The notes under the pieces were generated by a model. That model was not told the DNA's origin and ran no database searches. It was given only the letters and a program-made list of their open reading frames with translations. From contig JASFUG010000003.1 in assembly GCA_050050395.1 (NCBI GenBank), positions 1-36,053 of the forward strand: a stretch of 36,053 nucleotides of DNA, read 5' to 3'. Positions 3,298 to 18,780 of this stretch are shown here, piece by piece. Both the position numbers and the translations under genes were made by a program. The first letter of the stretch is position 1. Each line of letters starts with the position of its first letter. The DNA is from Nitrospirota bacterium (GTDB taxonomy: Bacteria; CG2-30-53-67; CG2-30-70-394).

Positions 3298-5001
3298 GTG
3301 ACAGCCATCGCTGAGCAGATCGACACCCCGGACCCCGCTGCCGATGCGCTGGAGGCGGTGGTGCGCTATCACGAGCGCACCAAGCACCAGCCGAACCGCT
3401 ACGCGCGCTCCCTTGGCTACATGGACTGGGCGACGCAGCCCGATCCGTTTCGCCGCTTCATGGGTGCGCCGCTCGTCGCCCTGGACCGGGTGGAGCCCGG
3501 CTCGGTACCGACCTACGACGCCCTGTTCGGCGGAGGCGCCATCGCTTCCCGGCCGGTGGATCGCGCAGCGATCTCGCAGCTCTTCTTCGACAGCCTCGCC
3601 CTCTCGGCGTGGAAGGTGTACGGGCCGTCGCGCTGGTCCCTGCGGGTCAACCCCTCCAGCGGCAACCTCCACCCCACCGAGGGCTATCTCGTGGCCGGGC
3701 CAATCGCGGGGCTGACCGATCAGGCCGGCGTCTACCACTATGCGCCCCACGAGCACGCCCTGGAGGAGCGCTGGACTCTGGAGCCGGCGGCCTGGGAGGC
3801 GTTGCGACGCGGGTGGCCCGACGGCACCGTGTTCGTCGGCCTCACTAGCATCTACTGGCGGGAGGCGTGGAAGTACGGTGAGCGCGCCTTCCGCTACTGC
3901 CAGCACGACGTGGGTCATGCGATGGCGGCCATTGCCATCGCCGCGCGGATCCTTGGGTGGTCGGCCGTGTTGCTGGAGGGATCACCCGACGCGGCCCTGG
4001 CCGGTCTGCTGGCGATCGACCGGCAGGAAGGGATCGAGGCGGAGCACCCGGATTGCCTGATCGCGGTCGTGCCCGCCGGCGCAGTGGAGGACCTAGCAGC
4101 GGCACGCAGGTGGCAGATCCCGACCGCAGTGCTGGCGGAGCTCGCCGGTCGTGAACCGGCCGGCGTTCCCAGTCGATTGAGCGGCGACCACCACCCGTGG
4201 CCGGTCATCGACACGGTGTCGGAGGCCGCGACCAAGGACGCCCCGCCTGGCGAGGGCTTCTCGGATCCGGCGCCGCACGGCGCCACGCCTCCGGCATCGC
4301 ATCGCCCTTCACTCTCCGCCCGCCAGATCGTCCGCCAGCGGCGCAGCGCCGTGGCCATGGACGGTGCCACGGCAATCGACCGGGAGGCGTTCTACCGGAT
4401 GCTCCAGGCGGTGGTTCCGGCGACCAACGGCGCCGTTTTCGGCGCCCTCCCGTGGCGACCCCGGGTCCACCTGGCGATATTCGTCCACCGCGTGCACGAC
4501 CTCGTCCCGGGCCTCTATCTCCTGGTCCGTGAGGCCAGTGCAGCGGAGAGACTGCGCGAGACCATCACCGGGCCCGTCCTCTGGGAGCTCGCCGATGGCT
4601 GCCCCGACGGCCTCGGCCTTTACCTACTGGAGCGGGGCGACTTCCGCGACGGCGCGCGCCTGGTCTCCTGCCAACAGGAGATTGCCAGCGACGGCGCGTT
4701 CGCCCTCGGGATGCTCGCGGAGTTCGAGGGGCCGATCGCCGACTACGGCCCGTGGTTCTACAAGCGGCTGTTCTGGGAGACCGGCGCGATCGGCCAGGTC
4801 CTCTACCTGGAGGCCGAGGCCGCCGGCATCCGCGCCACCGGCATCGGATGTTTCTTCGACGACGTGATGCACCAGATCCTCGGTATCGAGGACCGCCGCC
4901 TCCAGTCCCTCTACCACTTCACCGTCGGCGGCCCCCTCGACGACCCCCGCCTCCGCACCGAGCCCCCGTACGCGCATCTGAAATCAGGAGCATCCGGCTG
5001 A
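3298..5001 (+). CDS. SagB/ThcOx-family nitroreductase-fold dehydrogenase (two domains)
   Basis: YHERTKH, LRVNPSSGNLHPTEGY, REAWKYGERAFRYCQHDVGH, RQRRSAVAMDG, TGIGCFFDD, YHFTVG. Confidence 0.9.
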   Translation: MTAIAEQIDTPDPAADALEAVVRYHERTKHQPNRYARSLGYMDWATQPDPFRRFMGAPLVALDRVEPGSVPTYDALFGGGAIASRPVDRAAISQLFFDSLALSAWKVYGPSRWSLRVNPSSGNLHPTEGYLVAGPIAGLTDQAGVYHYAPHEHALEERWTLEPAAWEALRRGWPDGTVFVGLTSIYWREAWKYGERAFRYCQHDVGHAMAAIAIAARILGWSAVLLEGSPDAALAGLLAIDRQEGIEAEHPDCLIAVVPAGAVEDLAAARRWQIPTAVLAELAGREPAGVPSRLSGDHHPWPVIDTVSEAATKDAPPGEGFSDPAPHGATPPASHRPSLSARQIVRQRRSAVAMDGATAIDREAFYRMLQAVVPATNGAVFGALPWRPRVHLAIFVHRVHDLVPGLYLLVREASAAERLRETITGPVLWELADGCPDGLGLYLLERGDFRDGARLVSCQQEIASDGAFALGMLAEFEGPIADYGPWFYKRLFWETGAIGQVLYLEAEAAGIRATGIGCFFDDVMHQILGIEDRRLQSLYHFTVGGPLDDPRLRTEPPYAHLKSGASG

Positions 5002-5099
5002 TGGGGTCGAGTTGGCAGCCGCTCTTCACTGCGGGCAAACTCGTCCACGGACTGACTCGAATCACGGCGACGGTAATCACTGAGCCAGTGGTGCTGTGA

Positions 5100-5438
5100 A
5101 TGAAACTGCCAAACGCGGAGAAGGCGAAGGTCGACCGGGAGAAGGTCACGGGGTACCTGCTATGCACTTCGCATTCCGATGGCGCCAATAAGGCTGCTTT
5201 TTTCTCCCGGTACGGTTTCACCGCGGGAGCGTGGGAGGTGCTCGCTGAGGCATTGCAAGACCACGGGAGGTCGCACCCTGTGTGTGGATCAGTGCCCTCC
5301 GCCTACGGAACGAGGTACAGTGTGGACGGACCACTCAAGAGCCCCGATGGGCGGAATCCGAAGGTGAGAACCGTTTGGATCGCTGAACGTGGAAGCGAGA
5401 CCCCGAGGCTGATAACGGCCTACCCGGTGAAGGAGTGA
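5100..5438 (+). CDS. DUF6883-like protein (putative toxin/nuclease component)
   Basis: MKLPNAEKA.V..EK..GYLL..SH.DG..KA.FF, YGTRY...G.LKSPDGR...VRTVWI, PRLITAYP; recognised from pattern only. Confidence 0.75.
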   Translation: MKLPNAEKAKVDREKVTGYLLCTSHSDGANKAAFFSRYGFTAGAWEVLAEALQDHGRSHPVCGSVPSAYGTRYSVDGPLKSPDGRNPKVRTVWIAERGSETPRLITAYPVKE

Positions 5439-5441
5439 GCT

Positions 5442-5672
5442 GTGATCCGAGAGCATGATCGCGTCGTCTTAGTCGCCGACGTGCCTGAACAGGATATCAA
5501 GGCCGGCGACGTCGGGACCGTTGTCCATGTCTACTCCGGGGGTGCCGCCTACGAGGTGGAGCTGATGACCCTGACCGGGGAGACCGTTGCCGTGCTCACC
5601 CTGTCCGCCGACCAGGTCCGAGAGGTACGCGCAGGAGAAGTCGCCCACGCCCGCCCCCGCGAGGCGGCCTGA
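5442..5672 (+). CDS. DUF4926-like small protein (putative partner/antitoxin)
   Basis: EHDRVVL..DVP...IKAGDVGTVVHVY....AYEVE......GET.AV.T; AAGGAG RBS inside the end of the upstream gene; 3-nt gap. Confidence 0.8.
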   Translation: MIREHDRVVLVADVPEQDIKAGDVGTVVHVYSGGAAYEVELMTLTGETVAVLTLSADQVREVRAGEVAHARPREAA

Positions 5673-6051
5673 GCAGCTTCGTCACACGCCTTGCGCGCCC
5701 GGCCGCTTACCGCGGAGGACGTCAAGGTTCGCAAAAGGCCTGGCGGTAACCTGCCATCATCGCTCGCCGCCGCGAGGCGTGCGGAGGTGGCGGCGCGGTT
5801 GGTTTCAACGTAACGACACCAGGGCGCAAAGAGGTTGACCTACGGGGCAAGCGACGCCCGGCCGGTTCACTGACGGCCCTTCCGTTGGGCCGGATCGGCC
5901 GTGCGAAATGCGATAGCGCCGGCCAGACCCTCGCAACTAGTCTCCGTAGGCTACGAAGCGTGGGAGACCTAACGTCGTCTTCTTTCGCCTATTTGCCAGA
6001 TCTTGTTACCGACCATCTTTTAGGGAGATCCAATAAACGCAACCGAAGCCT

Positions 6052-6609
6052 TTGTTAGTTTTCCTATCTTTAGTCATAGGTTGTGCATTGACCTCTTGTA
6101 GTGCCCCACAAGTACAGAGAATGACAGAGCCGACGTTAGCATCTTCTAGAATTAATATAGACTTCGGATTCTCCTTTCAGCCGATATTGGAGTATGGAAC
6201 AGAAATCTGGGACAGGGGCGCGATGCTGGATGACCTGAGAAAGCACGGCAGCGGGACCATAGTAATCGGTCTGTTTCGTATGAAGAGGTCCGACGACGCT
6301 TTGGGGCAAGAAAAACGACTAGACGAATTTCTAACAGGCTATCTCAGGTCACAAAATGGCGTGTATGTAAAAGGGCCTGTGTCGCCCATTACGGTGGGTG
6401 GCCATGACGGGGTAGCAATTGAGACAACCGGTTTGTTTCGCCGTAGGCCTTTCCAAGGCCGCGCGGTCCTGGCGCCGCAAAGTGAGTCGGAAGACATGGT
6501 TGGTCTCTGTTTTGGCCTTACAAAGGCAAATGAAAATAGATGGGCGAATGAAGGACGTGAGGCGTGTGACACAGTGCTTAGCTCAGTAACATTTTCCGTG
6601 CGGAAATAA
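6052..6609 (+). CDS. Hypothetical lipoprotein, low GC, probably horizontally acquired
   Basis: 185-aa open frame in a visibly AT-richer segment with many A/T-ending codons; hydrophobic N-terminus with LTSC lipobox; TTG start uncertain. Confidence 0.6.
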   Translation: MLVFLSLVIGCALTSCSAPQVQRMTEPTLASSRINIDFGFSFQPILEYGTEIWDRGAMLDDLRKHGSGTIVIGLFRMKRSDDALGQEKRLDEFLTGYLRSQNGVYVKGPVSPITVGGHDGVAIETTGLFRRRPFQGRAVLAPQSESEDMVGLCFGLTKANENRWANEGREACDTVLSSVTFSVRK

Positions 6610-6685
6610 GCAAGATAAGGAGGAGCTTTGAGGCGGTGCCAGGCATGCAAACTTGGAGGGAAAGCGCGCTCGGAGAAGAAGACCC

Positions 6686-6765
6686 CTGAGGAAGCCAGGA
6701 GGCCAGGAGTAGCCTCCCGACGCCGGGCGATCTCCCATGCTCTCGTGCCTTCCTGGATTCCTCAG
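6686..6765. repeat. Imperfect inverted repeat with 24-bp arms (periodic-arm family)
   Basis: CTGAGGAAGCCAGGAGGCCAGGAG (6686-6709) vs CTCGTGCCTTCCTGGATTCCTCAG (6742-6765): 20/24 complementary. Confidence 0.75.
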
Positions 6766-6833
6766 CGAAGCTCGCGTCCGGCAGCCGCCGTGGTTCCAGC
6801 GAACCTCTGTCGATAGGAAGGCGCCGCTACGCG

Positions 6834-6899
6834 AATCTGCGTCCATCTGTGGTTCCTTCTTGCCCTCCGTTCTCTGCGTCCTCTGCGGCTCTGCGGTGA
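6834..6899 (-). repeat. Two unpaired arms of the periodic-arm repeat family just after the helicase stop
   Basis: Minus strand reads TCACCGCAGAGCCGCAGAGGACGCAGAG (6899-6872), similar to the 9441/9518 arms, then AACCACAGATGGACGCAGAT (6854-6835). Confidence 0.7.
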
Positions 6900-6902
6900 G
6901 AC

Positions 6903-9401
6903 CTACGCTCCCGCGGCGAGGTCTGCCGGGACGACCGGCGGCTGGAGGAGGCGGCGGCGCAGCTCCAGGACCGGGGCGCGGAACGCCGGGTCGACGCGGG
7001 GGAAGCCGCCGGCGACGTCGGTGAGCTGTTGCAGGGTGCGCACCAGGTCGCCCTCCATCACCCCGCCCTCGACGAAGTCCGCCACCAGGGAGGCCCACGG
7101 CTCGCCCGCCAGCCACCGCTTGGCGAGCTCGCCGCCGCCCCAGCCGTAGCCGGCGAAGCGGATGCGGTTGCCCGGCAGGCGGCGGTAGCGGGAGGAGAGG
7201 TGCTCGGGGTAGAGCTCGGTCAGCTCTCTCGGGGCGTCGCCGATCTCCGACTCCCATCGCTCCCCGGCCAGGGCACCGAGCAGGCCCACCTTGTCGAGGA
7301 GGTTCTCCGGGGTGACCTTGCCCTTGGCGAGACGCCGCGCCAGGTAGAGGCCGCCGTAGGTGCCGCCGAAGGCGGCGGCGGTCTCCCCCAGGGGGTTTAG
7401 GCGTCCGGTGTCGTCGCAGAACCCCTGGCGTTGCAGGTGGCCGAGGACCTTGAGCAGGTGGCCGCTGATCGGGTGGCTGCGGATCTCGTGCTCCGCGATG
7501 CGGCACGAACCGGCTACCGGGCAGTCGGCGCACACGTGGCCTGCGGCGCGTCTCTCCAGGGTGGCGAGGCGCCCCTGGCGGGCGCGGCGAATCTCCTTCA
7601 GGGCGGCGTCGGCCTCCTGAAAGGCGCGCTGGGCGATGCGCATCTGGCGGTGGGCGAGTCCCGCCCCGCGGCCGCGCGCCCGCTCGCTGCGCCGCTGGAG
7701 GCGGGCGATCTCCCCCTTCGCCTCCAGGAGACGGCGGCGCCAGGCGCGGTGCCCCCGGACCAGCTCCGCCAGGCGGCGGGCCTCGCCCTGGAGGTGGTCG
7801 AAGTCATGGCGGGTGGTGAAGCCGGTGCAGCGCGAATCGTCGCGGAAGCCGAACGCCCCCGCCGCCTCCACCACCGTGCGCGACGGCGCCAGGGGCGGCA
7901 GCGTTGTGCCCCAGTCGCCGCGGGTGAATCGCTCGAAGCTCCGCTCCAGGAGGCGGCGCAGGGGGATGGCGCCGCCGGTTGCCGCCAGCAGGGCCACCAT
8001 CTGGTCAAGGTCGACGGAGGCGGTGAGGGCCGAGCGCAGCTCCTCGCGCTCGAAGGCCACCGGCCCCGAGTGCCACGGCACCACGGAGTATCCCACCTCC
8101 TCTTTGCCGCGGCGGCCGGCGCGGCCGAGCATCTGGATCACCTCGGCGTCGGAGAAGTCCTGCACCCCTTTCGCCCCGGGGCGCTGGTGGGTGGCGACCA
8201 CCACGGTACGTACGGAGAAATCGATGCCCATGGCCAGGGTGGTGGTGCCGACGATGAAGCGCAGCAGCCCGACCTTGCCGAGGCGCTCCACCGCGTCCTT
8301 CTCCGCCGGCAACAGGGCTGCGGAGTGGTAGCCGACGCCGCTGGCCACCAGCATCCGGCGCAGCCAGGGCGAGACGAAGTCGCGGTCCGGCAGGTCGTCG
8401 AGGATTGCCGTGACCGCCGCCGCCTCGTCGTGTCCCAGGGGCGGGAGGCGGTGGGCGATTGCCTGGGCGAGGCCCTGGGCGGCCTTGCGCTTGCCCACCA
8501 TCACCAGGGCCGGGCAGAGGTCCTGCTCGAAGAGCCGGAGGTAGTCCAGGCCCGGCGCCACCGGCGGCAGTCGGTAGTTGCGTCGTGCCTGGCGCAGCGC
8601 CGGTTCGTCGACCACGTCCACCAATCCCGCCTCGCTGGGCACGAGCTGCACCAGCTCCACCGGCCGCTGCTCGTCGCGGATGCACACCGCCGGCTGATTG
8701 GAGACGGCGCCGAGCCAGCCGGCGATTTGGTCACCGTTGGCCACCGAGGCCGAGAGGAGCACGAGCTGCACGCCAGCCTCGGCAGCGATCAGGATCGTGG
8801 TCTCGTAGGCGATGCCACGCTCGCCATCGGCGAGCATGGCGTACTCGTCGATGATGGCCAGGGACCATCGTCGGGCCCCGGGGGATCCGGCGGTTTCGCG
8901 GTCCGCTGTCTCCAGCGCGCCCTCCCCCACCAGGATGTTGCGCCAGCTCTCCAGGGTGGCGACCAGCAGCGGCGCGGTGGTGTTGAGCTTCACGTCGCCG
9001 GTGTGAAGCCCCACCTGCGCGGCGCCGAAGCGCTGCTGGAAGTCGCGGTACTTGTCGTTGGCCAGGGCCTTGATCGGTGCGGTGTAGCAGCAGCGGCCGC
9101 CTTGGGCGAGGGCCATGCGGATCGCCTCCTCGCATGGCCACGTCTTCCCGGCGCCGGTGGGGGCGTCGACCACCACGTGGTCGCCGCGGGCGATCGCCGC
9201 ACCCACCTTCTCCTGCCATGGGTCCGGCACCAGCGGCCCGTCGTGGGCGAACGGCGGTCCGCCGTACACCAGCAGGGGTTTCACCGCGGCGACGAACCCG
9301 GCCGGCAGGTCACGCCGACGGGGCGCGGCCGGGTGTGCCTCCGCGCCATCGGCCCGGCGTTCGCGGTACACCCTCCGGCCTCCGCCGCCGGGGTGCCTCA
9401 T
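6903..9401 (-). CDS. Ski2/HelY-like SF2 RNA helicase with C-terminal DSHCT-like region
   Basis: PDPWQ, APTGAGKT, TAPIKALANDK, GLHTGD, IIDEYA, LSAS, TTTLAMGID, QMLGRAGRRG, C-terminal EGDLVR; start 9401 (ATG) or 9284 (GTG). Confidence 0.88.
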   Translation of the reverse strand: MRHPGGGGRRVYRERRADGAEAHPAAPRRRDLPAGFVAAVKPLLVYGGPPFAHDGPLVPDPWQEKVGAAIARGDHVVVDAPTGAGKTWPCEEAIRMALAQGGRCCYTAPIKALANDKYRDFQQRFGAAQVGLHTGDVKLNTTAPLLVATLESWRNILVGEGALETADRETAGSPGARRWSLAIIDEYAMLADGERGIAYETTILIAAEAGVQLVLLSASVANGDQIAGWLGAVSNQPAVCIRDEQRPVELVQLVPSEAGLVDVVDEPALRQARRNYRLPPVAPGLDYLRLFEQDLCPALVMVGKRKAAQGLAQAIAHRLPPLGHDEAAAVTAILDDLPDRDFVSPWLRRMLVASGVGYHSAALLPAEKDAVERLGKVGLLRFIVGTTTLAMGIDFSVRTVVVATHQRPGAKGVQDFSDAEVIQMLGRAGRRGKEEVGYSVVPWHSGPVAFEREELRSALTASVDLDQMVALLAATGGAIPLRRLLERSFERFTRGDWGTTLPPLAPSRTVVEAAGAFGFRDDSRCTGFTTRHDFDHLQGEARRLAELVRGHRAWRRRLLEAKGEIARLQRRSERARGRGAGLAHRQMRIAQRAFQEADAALKEIRRARQGRLATLERRAAGHVCADCPVAGSCRIAEHEIRSHPISGHLLKVLGHLQRQGFCDDTGRLNPLGETAAAFGGTYGGLYLARRLAKGKVTPENLLDKVGLLGALAGERWESEIGDAPRELTELYPEHLSSRYRRLPGNRIRFAGYGWGGGELAKRWLAGEPWASLVADFVEGGVMEGDLVRTLQQLTDVAGGFPRVDPAFRAPVLELRRRLLQPPVVPADLAAGA

Positions 9402-9440
9402 CCGGTTCGTCCAGTGAGACGGTAACGAAGGCCATGACGG

Positions 9441-9518
9441 TCACCACAGAGACACAGAGGAGACAGAGGACGAGGCGAGTGAATAGACATCTCTGTGATC
9501 TCTGTGTCTCTGTGGTGA
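9441..9518. repeat. Inverted repeat with 19-bp perfect core (periodic-arm family)
   Basis: TCACCACAGAGACACAGAGGAGACAGAG ... CTCTGTGATCTCTGTGTCTCTGTGGTGA. Confidence 0.9.
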
Positions 9519-9534
9519 AGGATCTGGTGGAGGC

Positions 9535-16200: not shown

Positions 16201-17995
16201 CTTCAACCACCGGCACATCTTTGTCGACCCGGACCCGGACCCCGCGCGCTCCTACAAGGAGCGCGAGCGCCTCTTCCGCCTGGCCGGTTCGACGTGGCGT
16301 GACTACGACACCTCCTTGATCAGCAACGGTGGGGGTGTCTTCGAGCGTGCCGGCAAGGCGATCGAGCTGGCGCCGAACGTGCGTGACATGCTCGGCGCCA
16401 AGCGTGCCACGGTGAGCGGCGAGGAGCTCATCCGTCTCGCCCTGACCATGGAGGTGGACCTGCTGTACAACGGCGGCATCGGCACCTACATCAAGGCCTC
16501 TACCGAGCGCCACGTGGATGTCGGCGACAAGGCCAACGATCGGGTCCGGGTCGACGCCAGCGCGGTGCGCGCACGGGTGGTCTGCGAGGGCGGCAACCTC
16601 GGCATAACCCAGCTCGGCCGGCTCGAGTACGCCGCGCACGGTGGCCGCATCAACACCGATGCGGTCGATAACTCCGCCGGCGTCGATATGTCGGACCATG
16701 AGGTCAACCTGAAGCTCCTGTGCCAGGTGGCCATGGAGGAGGGCCGTCTCAAGGACAGCAAGGCGCGTGACCGGTTGCTGGTCCAGGTCACCGAAGAGGT
16801 GGCGGAGCTGTGCCTGGCGGACAACTACCACCAGAGCGCCTGCGTCTCCCTCGATCAGCGTCGCGGCCGGGAGTCCGCCGCGCCGTTCGTCTCGTTGATC
16901 GAGAGGCGGGTGGCGGACGGGGTGCTGGCGGCGGAGGAGGAGCAGGTCCCGGTCGACGAGGCGCTGGATGGGGCGGTGAAGGCCCACGGCGGCCTGCTGC
17001 GGCCGACCCTCTGTACCCTGCTGGGCTACGAGAAGATGCGCCTCCAGGCGGCGCTCACCGGTTCCCCGCTGGTCGACCTGCCGGGGGCCGGGGAGTACCT
17101 ACGTGCCTACTTCCCCCGGGTGTTCGTGCGTCGTTTCGGGGAGCTGCTGGAGCGCCACCCCCTGCGGGCGGAGATCGTCGCCACCGTCATGGTGAACAAG
17201 ATCGTCAACCAGGCGGGGATCACCTTTTTCTCGGAGATGGAGGAGGAGTCCGGAGCGCCGCCGTGGGAGATCGCCTACGCTTACCTGGTGGCGGAGCGCA
17301 TCGTCGATGCCGACAGCTATCGCGACTGGCTGGCCAAGCTGGACAACAAGATGGAGGCCGCGGTGCAGTACGACCTCGCCCTGCGTCAGGAAGAGCTCCT
17401 CGGCCACCTCACCCAGCGTCTCCTTCACCGTTCGCCCGAGGAGCGTCCATCGTTCGCGGACATCTCCCACTATCGTCGCCACGTTCGCGCCTTCGAGGCG
17501 AGCTTCGCGGGTGACGATCACACGAAGGAGGTGGCCGCCTTGCGTCAGCAAGGGGTTCCGGCGCCTCTTGCCCAGCACGCCGCCCGCCTGCCGAGGTTAC
17601 GTGGGATCTTCGAGGTCATCGATCTGCATCAGGAGATGGGGACGCCATTCGTGGCCATCGGTCAGTGCCTGGTGGTGGTCGGCGATGCCCTGTGCCTCGA
17701 TGAGCTGCGCAGCCGCCTCGCCGGTCTCGTCGTGGATGGAGAGTGGCAGGAGCAGGCGCGCCACGACCTCCTGGAGCAGGTGTCGCGGCTACGGTATCGC
17801 CTCGTCACCGCAGCGCTGCGCCGGCACAGCCAGCGCCACACGGTCGCCGAGGCGGTGAACGCATTCTTCGCCGAGCGTAGCGAGCCACTGCGCGCCTACC
17901 GTGAGCGGCTCGCCGCCTTGGTGGCCAGCGACCGCGCCGACGCGGTGATGTTCTCCGTGGTCTTGCATCAGTTGCGCGACCTGCTGCCGGAGTAG
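13256..17995 (+). CDS. gdhB: Large NAD-specific glutamate dehydrogenase
   Basis: [96 protein letters not shown]; start moved to ATG 13256 behind GGAG. Confidence 0.95.
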   Translation: [1579 protein letters not shown]

Positions 17996-18032
17996 TTCTT
18001 AGTGAACGCGGGCCGACGCCCGGGAGAGAGAC

Positions 18033-18233
18033 ATGGACCGAATCATCGATTTGGCAGGAAACGTGGCGGGTGTCCTGGGAATACTCGTCTGCCTGGGCAG
18101 CGGGCTGGTGCGCATCGGCGGCGGCTTTTACTTCGGCGGCGTGCAGCTCATGCCCCTATTCACGGCGGGGATCGCCCTGATGGTGATGGGGTGCCTCGCC
18201 AAGCTGCACGTCCTGACCCGGATGCGGCGCTGA
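18033..18233 (+). CDS. Small two-helix membrane protein
   Basis: GGGAGAG RBS; 66 aa with two hydrophobic segments; 37 nt after the GDH stop. Confidence 0.7.
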   Translation: MDRIIDLAGNVAGVLGILVCLGSGLVRIGGGFYFGGVQLMPLFTAGIALMVMGCLAKLHVLTRMRR

Positions 18234-18285
18234 CGGGCGCGTCCCGGGCGGCTCGGCCAGGCGGCTAGCCTGCCTGCGCTGGGTA

Positions 18286-18780
18286 TCACGGGGCGTTGGG
18301 TACGACGACGCCCTCGTCCGTGCTCGCCTCGGCGGTCGGTGCCTCGGCAGCGGGCGTCTCCATCGCGTCCGCGGCCTCGGTATCCGGCGCTTCGGTGCCC
18401 GCGCAATGGACGTCGGCGGTGGCGATGCGCGGTACACCGGCGACGTGCAGGTTCTCGATCACGAGGTCGCCGTCCGGGCACAGGTCCGATACCCGCTCGT
18501 GGAGCAGGCGCTCCGCCGCCTCCTCCGACGAGAAGTAGTTGACCCGCACCAGCACATGCCACTGGCCAGGGATCGTTTCGGTCACGGTGTGAATCGTCTC
18601 CCGGCCTTCCGGGTCGAGGTAGGGGTCCGGCAGGGTGTTGCATGCCGGAAGCGTCACGCATAGGGCCACCAGCAGCGCCGCACCCCATCGATGTCGGTGG
18701 ACGGGAAGTGGGCGATCGATCACCGGTGCCGGGCCACGTGCCCCGGAGAGGGGAGGTGATGCGTGCAGTCGTATACCCAT
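18286..18780 (-). CDS. Hypothetical lipoprotein with acidic Ala/Pro/Glu tail
   Basis: WGAALLVALCVTLPAC lipobox-like segment; two further Cys; real start probably later (e.g. GTG 18723). Confidence 0.6.
   Translation of the reverse strand: MGIRLHASPPLSGARGPAPVIDRPLPVHRHRWGAALLVALCVTLPACNTLPDPYLDPEGRETIHTVTETIPGQWHVLVRVNYFSSEEAAERLLHERVSDLCPDGDLVIENLHVAGVPRIATADVHCAGTEAPDTEAADAMETPAAEAPTAEASTDEGVVVPNAP

Follow-up and report, generated by a model that had tools for sequence, protein, structure and literature searches.

How small accessory genes come to be gathered at a locus that encodes no mobility enzyme is the question raised by positions 5002-6902 of contig C3 (JASFUG010000003.1) in a metagenome-assembled Nitrospirota genome (GCA_050050395.1, labelled G000; 84% complete, 3.12 Mb, 67% GC), analysed here within a stretch of 36,053 nucleotides (nt), the window. 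This pocket lies between two converging genes, coding for a SagB-type nitroreductase-family protein and a Ski2/Hel308-like helicase, and its spacers hold short periodic repeats, termed arms. An initial annotation of the DNA proposed that the arms may be substrates or scars of a trans-acting system which captures gene cassettes, in a role analogous to that of attC sites. The pocket proves to be an accessory islet that varies between strains and contains, in this one, a toxin-immunity pair and a foreign lipoprotein gene. It is further proposed, with moderate confidence, that the arms form a scaffold of relics of elements encoding GxxExxY proteins, and that these arms promote gene turnover without being dedicated cassette-integration machinery.

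Flexible genomic islets of the replacement or additive type carry differing small accessory genes between the same core flanks in close relatives and lack a mobility gene. The same core flanks and differing content in close relatives are also found here. Orthologues of the helicase gene are encoded in three same-family genomes (62-64% identity) and in three metagenome contigs (loci L039, L040 and L041; 82-85% identity). The helicase flank is common to the window and the three contigs, and the SagB flank to the window and L040, where an 82% identical orthologue lies beyond the pocket. No orthologue of the SagB-like gene was found in the same-genus and same-family reference genomes; the same-family genomes share the helicase gene and its upstream neighbour, and downstream of the helicase gene G002, G003 and G004 show neither synteny nor arms. 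The initial annotation had staked its reading on relatives differing in content, and they do in all four loci: between the same arms, L039 contains no genes, the window one, L041 two and L040 five to six. The genes of L040 comprise an ORF6N fragment, HicA, a HicB-like open reading frame (ORF), a HEPN gene of the pEK499_p136 type, a PEP-CTERM gene, DUF4926, a DUF6883 remnant and a chalcone-isomerase-like gene, while L041 encodes a chalcone isomerase, a KAP NTPase, DUF5615, DUF433, an MqsA-like zinc finger and DUF4926. In L039, approximately 380 gene-less nt are followed by DUF2283 and UPF0150/HicB-like genes. No integrase or transposase family was found in the pocket ORFs of any of the four loci, in agreement with the initial annotation of 5002-6902. 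Further along L039, 4 kb past the pocket, a type I restriction-modification methylase gene (HsdM, 17147-18418) follows a PAS/GAF hybrid histidine kinase gene and a Ppx/GppA fragment; downstream of the helicase gene, L039 is not syntenic with the window.

The content is exchanged within a frame of repeats. Read on the helicase sense strand, the helicase stop codon is followed by an arm of the most closely studied repeat family (family 1, +), a CAGATGGA arm (+), an optional hairpin resembling repetitive extragenic palindromes (REP) and the cargo, after which come the CACGGGG arm C (-), the CGCAAAG arm B (-) and arm A (-). This order is kept in all four loci, with B degenerate and C unclear in L039. 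In this respect the locus differs from other flexible genomic islets: a conserved non-coding repeat scaffold persists inside it, and most homology breaks fall at scaffold elements. The slot between a pair of CAGGAAG-family arms and arm C, for example, holds the lipoprotein gene in the window and the HEPN and PEP-CTERM genes in L040. Over the four pockets, Tandem Repeats Finder (TRF) detected 24 periodic arrays, whereas shuffled sequences gave 6.35.

Collinearity between the window and each of the three relatives extends as far as the inner end of the family-1 arm (6871/6872; 6866 in L041), where homology stops in all three comparisons. The arm itself, whose head lies 1 nt past the helicase stop codon, is conserved in all three. 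The insertion of ORF6N and HicA in L040 (859 nt, against 15 nt in L041) also starts directly at the inner end of this arm. Two rearrangements, weighed below, have no arm at the junction. Across the loci, 44 of the 72 homology-block endpoints are found no more than 30 nt away from the end of an arm or hairpin, where 12.3 would be expected, and none of 5000 simulations reached 44; the test is partly circular, however, in that the arms are conserved segments in their own right.

Five of the six arm sites proposed by the initial annotation are real (Table 1). The exception is 5045, which matches no arm family and whose orthologous stretch in L040 is conserved and non-periodic; the claim that every spacer carries arms fails with it for the spacer 5002-5099. 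The annotation had also cautioned that the left arms are degenerate, and by themselves they do fail the motif tests: within the 2-kb pocket, nhmmer gave no match at 5045, 5707 or 5805 even at E 1000, with three arms found in the window, and the matrix tail fractions of the three sites (5e-4 to 2e-3) are those expected by chance for approximately 840 positions. The provisional conclusion that the left arms are not real was overturned by orthology for 5706 and 5803, and kept for 5045. Positions 5690-5860 align to a module found in all three relatives, with two copies in L040, which contains well-formed periodic arms (TTCACCGCGGAGGACGCCGAGGTTCGCAGAGG for arm A, TTTCAACGCAAAGACGCCAAGGCGCAAAGACGCAAAG for arm B and TTGACCACGGGGGACACGGGGAGCTCACGGGG for arm C). 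Since the orthologous positions hold well-formed arms, 5706 and 5803 are decayed arm copies. The relatives-based consensus of the CGCAAAG family, matched by 5803, has 14 matches in the genome and none in a reversed control. Arm C is the weakest of the assigned arms. On the right side, the CAGGAAG-family pair has orthologous pairs in L040 and L039 (78-81% identical), and the adjacent arm of the CACAGATGGA family (14 genome matches, none in the control) has three-unit orthologues in L039, L040 and L041. The two arms nearest the helicase gene, placed at 6835-6854 and 6872-6899 and described as oppositely oriented, both lie on the minus strand in the same orientation, while the rule that left arms are on the plus strand and right arms on the minus strand, with their tails inward, is correct.

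Table 1. Genes, arms and rejected arm site in the pocket and its flanks (window coordinates)
Feature	Position	Strand	Remarks
SagB-type nitroreductase-family gene	3298..5001	+	Left conserved flank; Pfam Nitroreductase E 1e-14
Claimed arm, unsupported	5045..5067	+	No TRF array; no nhmmer match at E<=1000; matrix tail fraction 5e-4
DUF6883 gene, BECR-Tox3-type predicted ribonuclease (RNase) toxin	5100..5438	+	Pfam PF21814 E 8e-38
DUF4926 gene, predicted immunity partner	5442..5672	+	Pfam PF16277 E 3e-22
Arm A, degenerate, TTCACCGCGGAG... type, head on left	5706..5737	+	Orthologous to well-formed arms in L039, L040 and L041
Arm B, CGCAAAG family, one unit lost	5803..5831	+	Family consensus match; orthologous four-unit arms in L040 (two copies) and L041
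Arm C, strongly degenerate, CACGGGG family	5834..5860	+	Visible solely by alignment to TTGACCACGGGGGACACGGGG... in L040 and L041
Low-GC ORF, predicted lipoprotein, 185 amino acids	6052..6609	+	Cargo of this strain
Inverted pair of CAGGAAG-family arms (second family)	6685..6709 and 6742..6766	+ and -	Family members elsewhere in genome
Two-unit CACAGATGGA-family arm (third family)	6835..6856	-	Minus-strand reading GGAACCACAGATGGACGCAGAT; same orientation as 6872-6901
Family-1 arm, CGCAGAG variant	6872..6901	-	Matrix 24.6 bits; nhmmer E 5e-4
Ski2/Hel308-like DEAD/DEAH helicase gene	6903..9401	-	Right conserved flank; Pfam DEAD, Helicase_C, DSHCT
Gene-less family-1 hairpin element, upstream of helicase gene	9439..9468 and 9491..9520	+ and -	40.8 and 50.8 bits

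Arms of the same design are dispersed throughout the genome, each consisting of a short head (TTCACC, TTCAAC, TTGACC, GAACC or CTAAGG) followed by two to four units of 8-10 nt. A position matrix built from 37 clean copies of family 1 (consensus TTTCACCACAGAGACACAGAGGACACAGAG) was used to scan the whole genome (6.2 million positions), and the scores are bimodal, with 70 positions above 12 bits and 31 more between 0 and 12. All 23 close pairs of family-1 arms are oriented head-outward and enclose 10-495 nt, and a further 24 arms are single. The interiors of the 18 pairs of at least 180 nt contain other repeats and repeat-like translations, with no convincing ORF. By crude gene calls, 51 of the 70 arms are intergenic, ten lie at the ends of calls and nine at contig edges. 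Six further word families have 4-71 matches each, against 0-6 in reversed controls. One family-1 arm (G000:C38:6468-6560) is apparently partnered by a CCCTAGC-type arm of another word family, indicating that heterologous arm pairs exist. Seven family-1 arms, on contigs C6, C39, C65, C167, C218, C303 and C325 of G000, are followed by a shared extension (GATCAGCGGAAAT...GGCGCCCATTTGTAGGGCC), which marks either a sub-family of greater length or a composite formed with a further repeat.

The family-1 pattern is not confined to this strain. It occurs 57 times in G000, 90 times in G002, 12 times in G001, four times in G003 and nine times in G004, against 0-1 in controls, and these dispersed gene-less copies thus vary in number from 4 to 90 among same-family genomes. 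The 27-nt form of the pattern was found in at least 122 reference-genome stretches which, among the matches listed, represent more than 12 phyla and one metagenome-assembled genome of Methanothrix. The exact pattern occurs in this archaeal genome (L084) and in the low-GC loci L116, L107 and L064 (0.38-0.43 GC), which points to either horizontal spread or binning contamination.

The link between arms and a protein family comes from genes that lie between them. A nuclease-fold gene flanked by intact arms, of the kind that the initial annotation had suggested looking for, is present at G000:C288:1885-2238, where a GxxExxY (PF13366) gene lies between four-unit CGCAAAG arms, and a truncated PF13366 copy is located between CGCTAAG arms on contig C171. 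A survey of this genome and 30 relatives yielded 24 near-full-length PF13366 loci with both flanks, of which 16 have a flanking inverted repeat scoring at or above the cut-off of 18, compared to none of 200 control small genes. The arm words at these loci include CGCAGAG (L168 of G002, a perfect 31/31 match), CGCAAAG, CACGGGG, CTAAGGAAGGCAGGAAG and the related CAGATT, such that every arm family of the pocket is represented. The D...E-x-K motif can be read intact in the sequences of the C288, L085 and L090 proteins. The GxxExxY gene between the arms of L090 belongs to TIGR04256 (NCBIfam), and Pfam comparison of 150 of the 198 inner-side ORFs from the family-1-pattern loci listed identified two PF13366 genes (L058 and L085); most copies at these listed loci are gene-less. 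A PDB sequence search with the C288 protein gave no match. Head-outward pairs, a gene between arms of the same word and dispersed gene-less copies, the features of a periodic-arm/GxxExxY cassette, are all found. Contig C3 has no PF13366 match, and the pocket itself contains neither a PF13366 nor a PF05635 gene. Both PF05635 genes of the genome, coding for four-helix-bundle proteins of the 23S ribosomal RNA (rRNA) intervening sequence type, are also bracketed by periodic arms. At G000:C177:3470-4200 the GGGGCTAG-type arrays at 3470-3510 and 3930-3965 share one orientation and an inverted copy lies near 4170-4200; at G000:C44:7700-8110 the arms are inverted and of the TAGCGGTCAGC type.

The favoured reading joins these observations as follows. 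A complete element consists of a small GxxExxY gene, coding for a protein of the PD-(D/E)XK fold, between two head-outward arms, and the arms of the pocket are gene-less relics of such elements from at least five word families. The scaffold of arms is conserved in the lineage, with the enclosed genes being exchanged between strains. GxxExxY-type proteins may mobilise or cut the arms in trans, and breaks at the arms, or arm homology alone, could make the spacer a preferred place for the gain, loss and replacement of small genes. That the arms aid gene turnover, via breaks or shared homology, is plausible. The part of the initial proposal which regarded them as scars or substrates left or used by a system acting in trans is reasonable, and their being scars is well supported. 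Should the arms contribute to turnover, a widespread class of repeats for which no publication was found would gain a function, that of marking, and perhaps creating, places of exchange for small accessory genes, and the uncharacterised GxxExxY family would gain a testable substrate. A literature search that included exact arm strings, with supplements outside its scope, revealed no publication describing the arms or linking GxxExxY to repeats, and publications mentioning GxxExxY or PF13366 are silent on repeats in the portions of their text that are available.

The best surviving alternative, which is considered unlikely though far from negligible, is that of an ordinary flexible islet: a generic hotspot downstream of the helicase gene, where toxin-antitoxin and other small genes are exchanged by homologous recombination in the flanking core genes together with illegitimate recombination, and where the arms are bystanders belonging to a common intergenic repeat. 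Several observations favour this explanation and weigh against a role of the arms in turnover. Periodic arrays are frequent: the 488 kb of intergenic DNA contain 511 of them and a shuffled version 100, and 20-27% of all spacers of 100-800 nt hold at least one, so that the arms of the islet may be incidental. Only two of the 15 toxin-antitoxin matches (PIN, ParE, DUF433 and DUF4926) lie within 300 nt of a periodic array, compared to 20% of all gene calls, and the enrichment of arms beside toxin-antitoxin genes that the initial annotation predicted is therefore lacking; HicA has no match in this genome. Gene content also varies beyond arm A (DUF2283 in L039, DUF5615 and DUF433 in L041), and some junctions are armless. 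In L040, DUF6883 has lost its initial ~270 nt by a 5' deletion whose junctions have no arm. A 0.8-kb chalcone-isomerase module occupies different places in two loci, being situated at the SagB 3' end in L040 (14258-15135), with a 37-nt direct duplication (89% identical) of the gene end, and immediately past the hairpins on the helicase side in L041; neither of its ends has an arm, and it moves with the help of neither arms nor an integrase. Another candidate pocket, bounded by family-1 arms at C227:364 and C227:4596, was rejected: the 4.2 kb enclosed contain only large ORFs of ordinary GC, and the two arms were assigned to separate elements.

Further points bear on the proposed enzyme and on the arms as pairs. 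To our knowledge, no activity has been assigned to any GxxExxY protein. This 84%-complete genome encodes one intact GxxExxY gene, and none that is flanked by family-1 arms. The two arms of a family-1 pair are as alike as arms of different pairs (0.796 versus 0.800), and hairpin pairing is thus not visibly selected in this family, while inspection of the flanks of the 23 pairs by eye revealed no obvious target-site duplication. PF13366 is listed as 'Unknown' in the available part of a 2012 survey (PMC3424549). Against the arms being bystanders, five to seven of them keep their order and orientation in four loci where everything between them differs, and in each of the three comparisons homology is lost at one and the same arm, at its inner end. 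The non-coding A-B-C module is, moreover, 73-83% conserved, approximately as coding DNA, although it abuts DUF4926, DUF5615 or DUF2283 in different loci. Even on the more cautious explanation, the four versions of the locus, with 0, 1, 2 and 5-6 genes inside one repeat frame, offer a clean natural series that shows an islet being assembled without an integrase.

A bolder version of the favoured reading, regarded as improbable, would make the scaffold an integrase-less platform for gene exchange. GxxExxY proteins would cut the inner ends of the arms and repair would swap the content between head-outward arms, such that selfish hairpins of 0.1-0.5 kb would occasionally hold toxin-antitoxin and surface genes across many bacterial phyla.

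Somewhat more doubtful still is a dedicated cassette platform, as the initial annotation envisaged, in which the arms would be attC-like recombination sites at which cassettes are inserted and excised by an enzyme acting in trans, for which GxxExxY is the candidate. The same arm frame occurs empty (L039), with a single gene (window) and with several genes (L040 and L041), the HicA module sits exactly at an arm inner end, genes of nuclease fold lie between arms of the same words, and no integrase was found in any of the four pockets. As in integrons, small promoter-less accessory genes, including toxin-antitoxin pairs, gather at one locus between structured repeats, and the enzyme need not lie in the array. 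However, the cargo genes point both ways, with mixed orientations in L040, and cargo modules lack a repeat of their own; the chalcone-isomerase module, the one seen at two sites, has no arms at its ends. The arms flanking the cargo belong to different word families and form no matched pair, and they are periodic arrays rather than bipartite palindromes of the attC type. No IntI, or other recombinase family, was found among the pocket ORFs of the four loci, to which the IntI search was limited, and there is no attI. Genome-wide, the arms show no association with accessory or toxin-antitoxin genes, and most pairs enclose 10-495 nt with no convincing ORF. A dedicated attC-like capture role is, on balance, improbable.

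That the arms are elements acting at the RNA level (long transcript stems, RNase III processing sites, 3'-end stabilisers or terminators) and are conserved independently of gene turnover is very improbable, for although heads lie 1-75 nt past stop codons in 22 cases, including the family-1 arm of the window, and 23S rRNA intervening sequences with flanking stems and a small ORF are described for Coxiella in the available part of one report (PMC4990558), family-1 heads adjoin gene starts (35) at least as often as gene ends (22), solo arms cannot form a stem, the two arms of a pair show no covariation, the spacer 6610-6905 folds no better than its shuffles (z -0.68), no Rfam family scored above threshold and terminator-like sites are at chance level in a promoter/terminator scan (2 versus 1.8 expected).

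Among known repeat systems, the arms resemble REP sequences and their hairpin doublets (REPINs) with REP-associated tyrosine transposases (RAYTs) in being short, dispersed and intergenic, mostly in inverted doublets and in tens to hundreds of copies, and in flanking a single-copy protein gene whose product is thought to act on the repeats in trans. The flanked gene here is, however, a PD-(D/E)XK-fold GxxExxY gene rather than a Y1 (HUH) transposase gene, and the arms are arrays of 8-10-nt units which, unlike the palindromes of the REP system, are not self-palindromic and comprise many word families of one design. A RAYT was considered as the partner enzyme of the arms and rejected: the sole PF01797 match, on contig C209, has a classical REP hairpin (GGTGCGCC...GGCGCACCCTACG) in its flanks rather than periodic arms. 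This Y1_Tnp RAYT-like gene (G000:C209:4900-5864, L038; 27.8 bits) has copies of the hairpin GGTGCGCCGCCCTTCGGTTGGCGCACCCTACG on both sides, so that this genome contains a further repeat system, distinct from the arms. Miniature inverted-repeat transposable elements share with the arm pairs the terminal inverted repeats, the variable non-coding interior (10-495 nt here), many gene-less copies and nesting, but no insertion sequence transposase with matching ends was seen, no target-site duplication was noticed and the same 27-nt arm pattern spans phyla. The S23p-encoding 23S rRNA intervening sequence of Coxiella burnetii, as far as the available part of the report shows (PMC4990558), is also a small selfish unit with an ORF between complementary flanks, and PF05635 genes are bracketed by periodic arms in this genome as well (C177 and C44); the elements here are instead intergenic and mostly ORF-less. 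Heptamer repeats of Xanthomonas and Nostoc (Rehm et al. 2015, PMC4692102) are, in the part of that paper available, abundant intergenic arrays of a few units with a 7-nt period near gene ends, and are described as G-quadruplex-forming tracts, unlike the arms, which have a conserved non-repeated head, units of 8-10 nt, head-outward inverted pairing and a link to a nuclease-fold gene.

The cargo of the window agrees with its initial description as a DUF6883/DUF4926-like pair and a low-GC lipoprotein gene. DUF4926 is encoded directly downstream of DUF6883, with a 3-nt gap, the organisation expected of the module, and the available part of a 2026 preprint places DUF6883 among the BECR-Tox3 RNase toxins and names DUF4926 as its conserved downstream partner (bioRxiv 10.64898/2026.08.28.747851). 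This DUF4926 gene is the sole copy detected in the genome and has orthologues in L040 and L041. The ORF at 6052-6609 lies within a GC trough (0.42-0.54, against 0.67 for the genome) and, read from a TTG start, encodes an L-T-S-C lipobox. It is absent from L039, L040 and L041 and has no match in Pfam or NCBIfam, and a word-based search returned only the ORF itself. There are 63 distant relatives, the top one of which aligns from residue 6. The Atlas model adopts a PsbP/DcrB-like fold (template modelling score 0.74-0.86 to PsbP/DcrB-type models), and the product is predicted to be a PsbP/DcrB-like lipoprotein.

Outside the pocket, the TIGR03605 SagB domain is recognised in the product of the left flanking gene with 97.7 bits, against a cut-off of 78.4. 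The gene-less family-1 pair upstream of the helicase gene (9439-9520) is present in L039 and L040, but no arm was seen in the syntenic loci (10-15 kb) of G002, G003 and G004; Rfam returned only sub-threshold, microRNA-like hairpin matches for it. Near the start of the window, at 592-1671, three direct repeats of approximately 300 nt, with spacings of 384 and 396 nt and an identity of 63-76%, lie inside a long ORF (43-2160, crude gene calls), which probably codes for a protein with a repeated domain.

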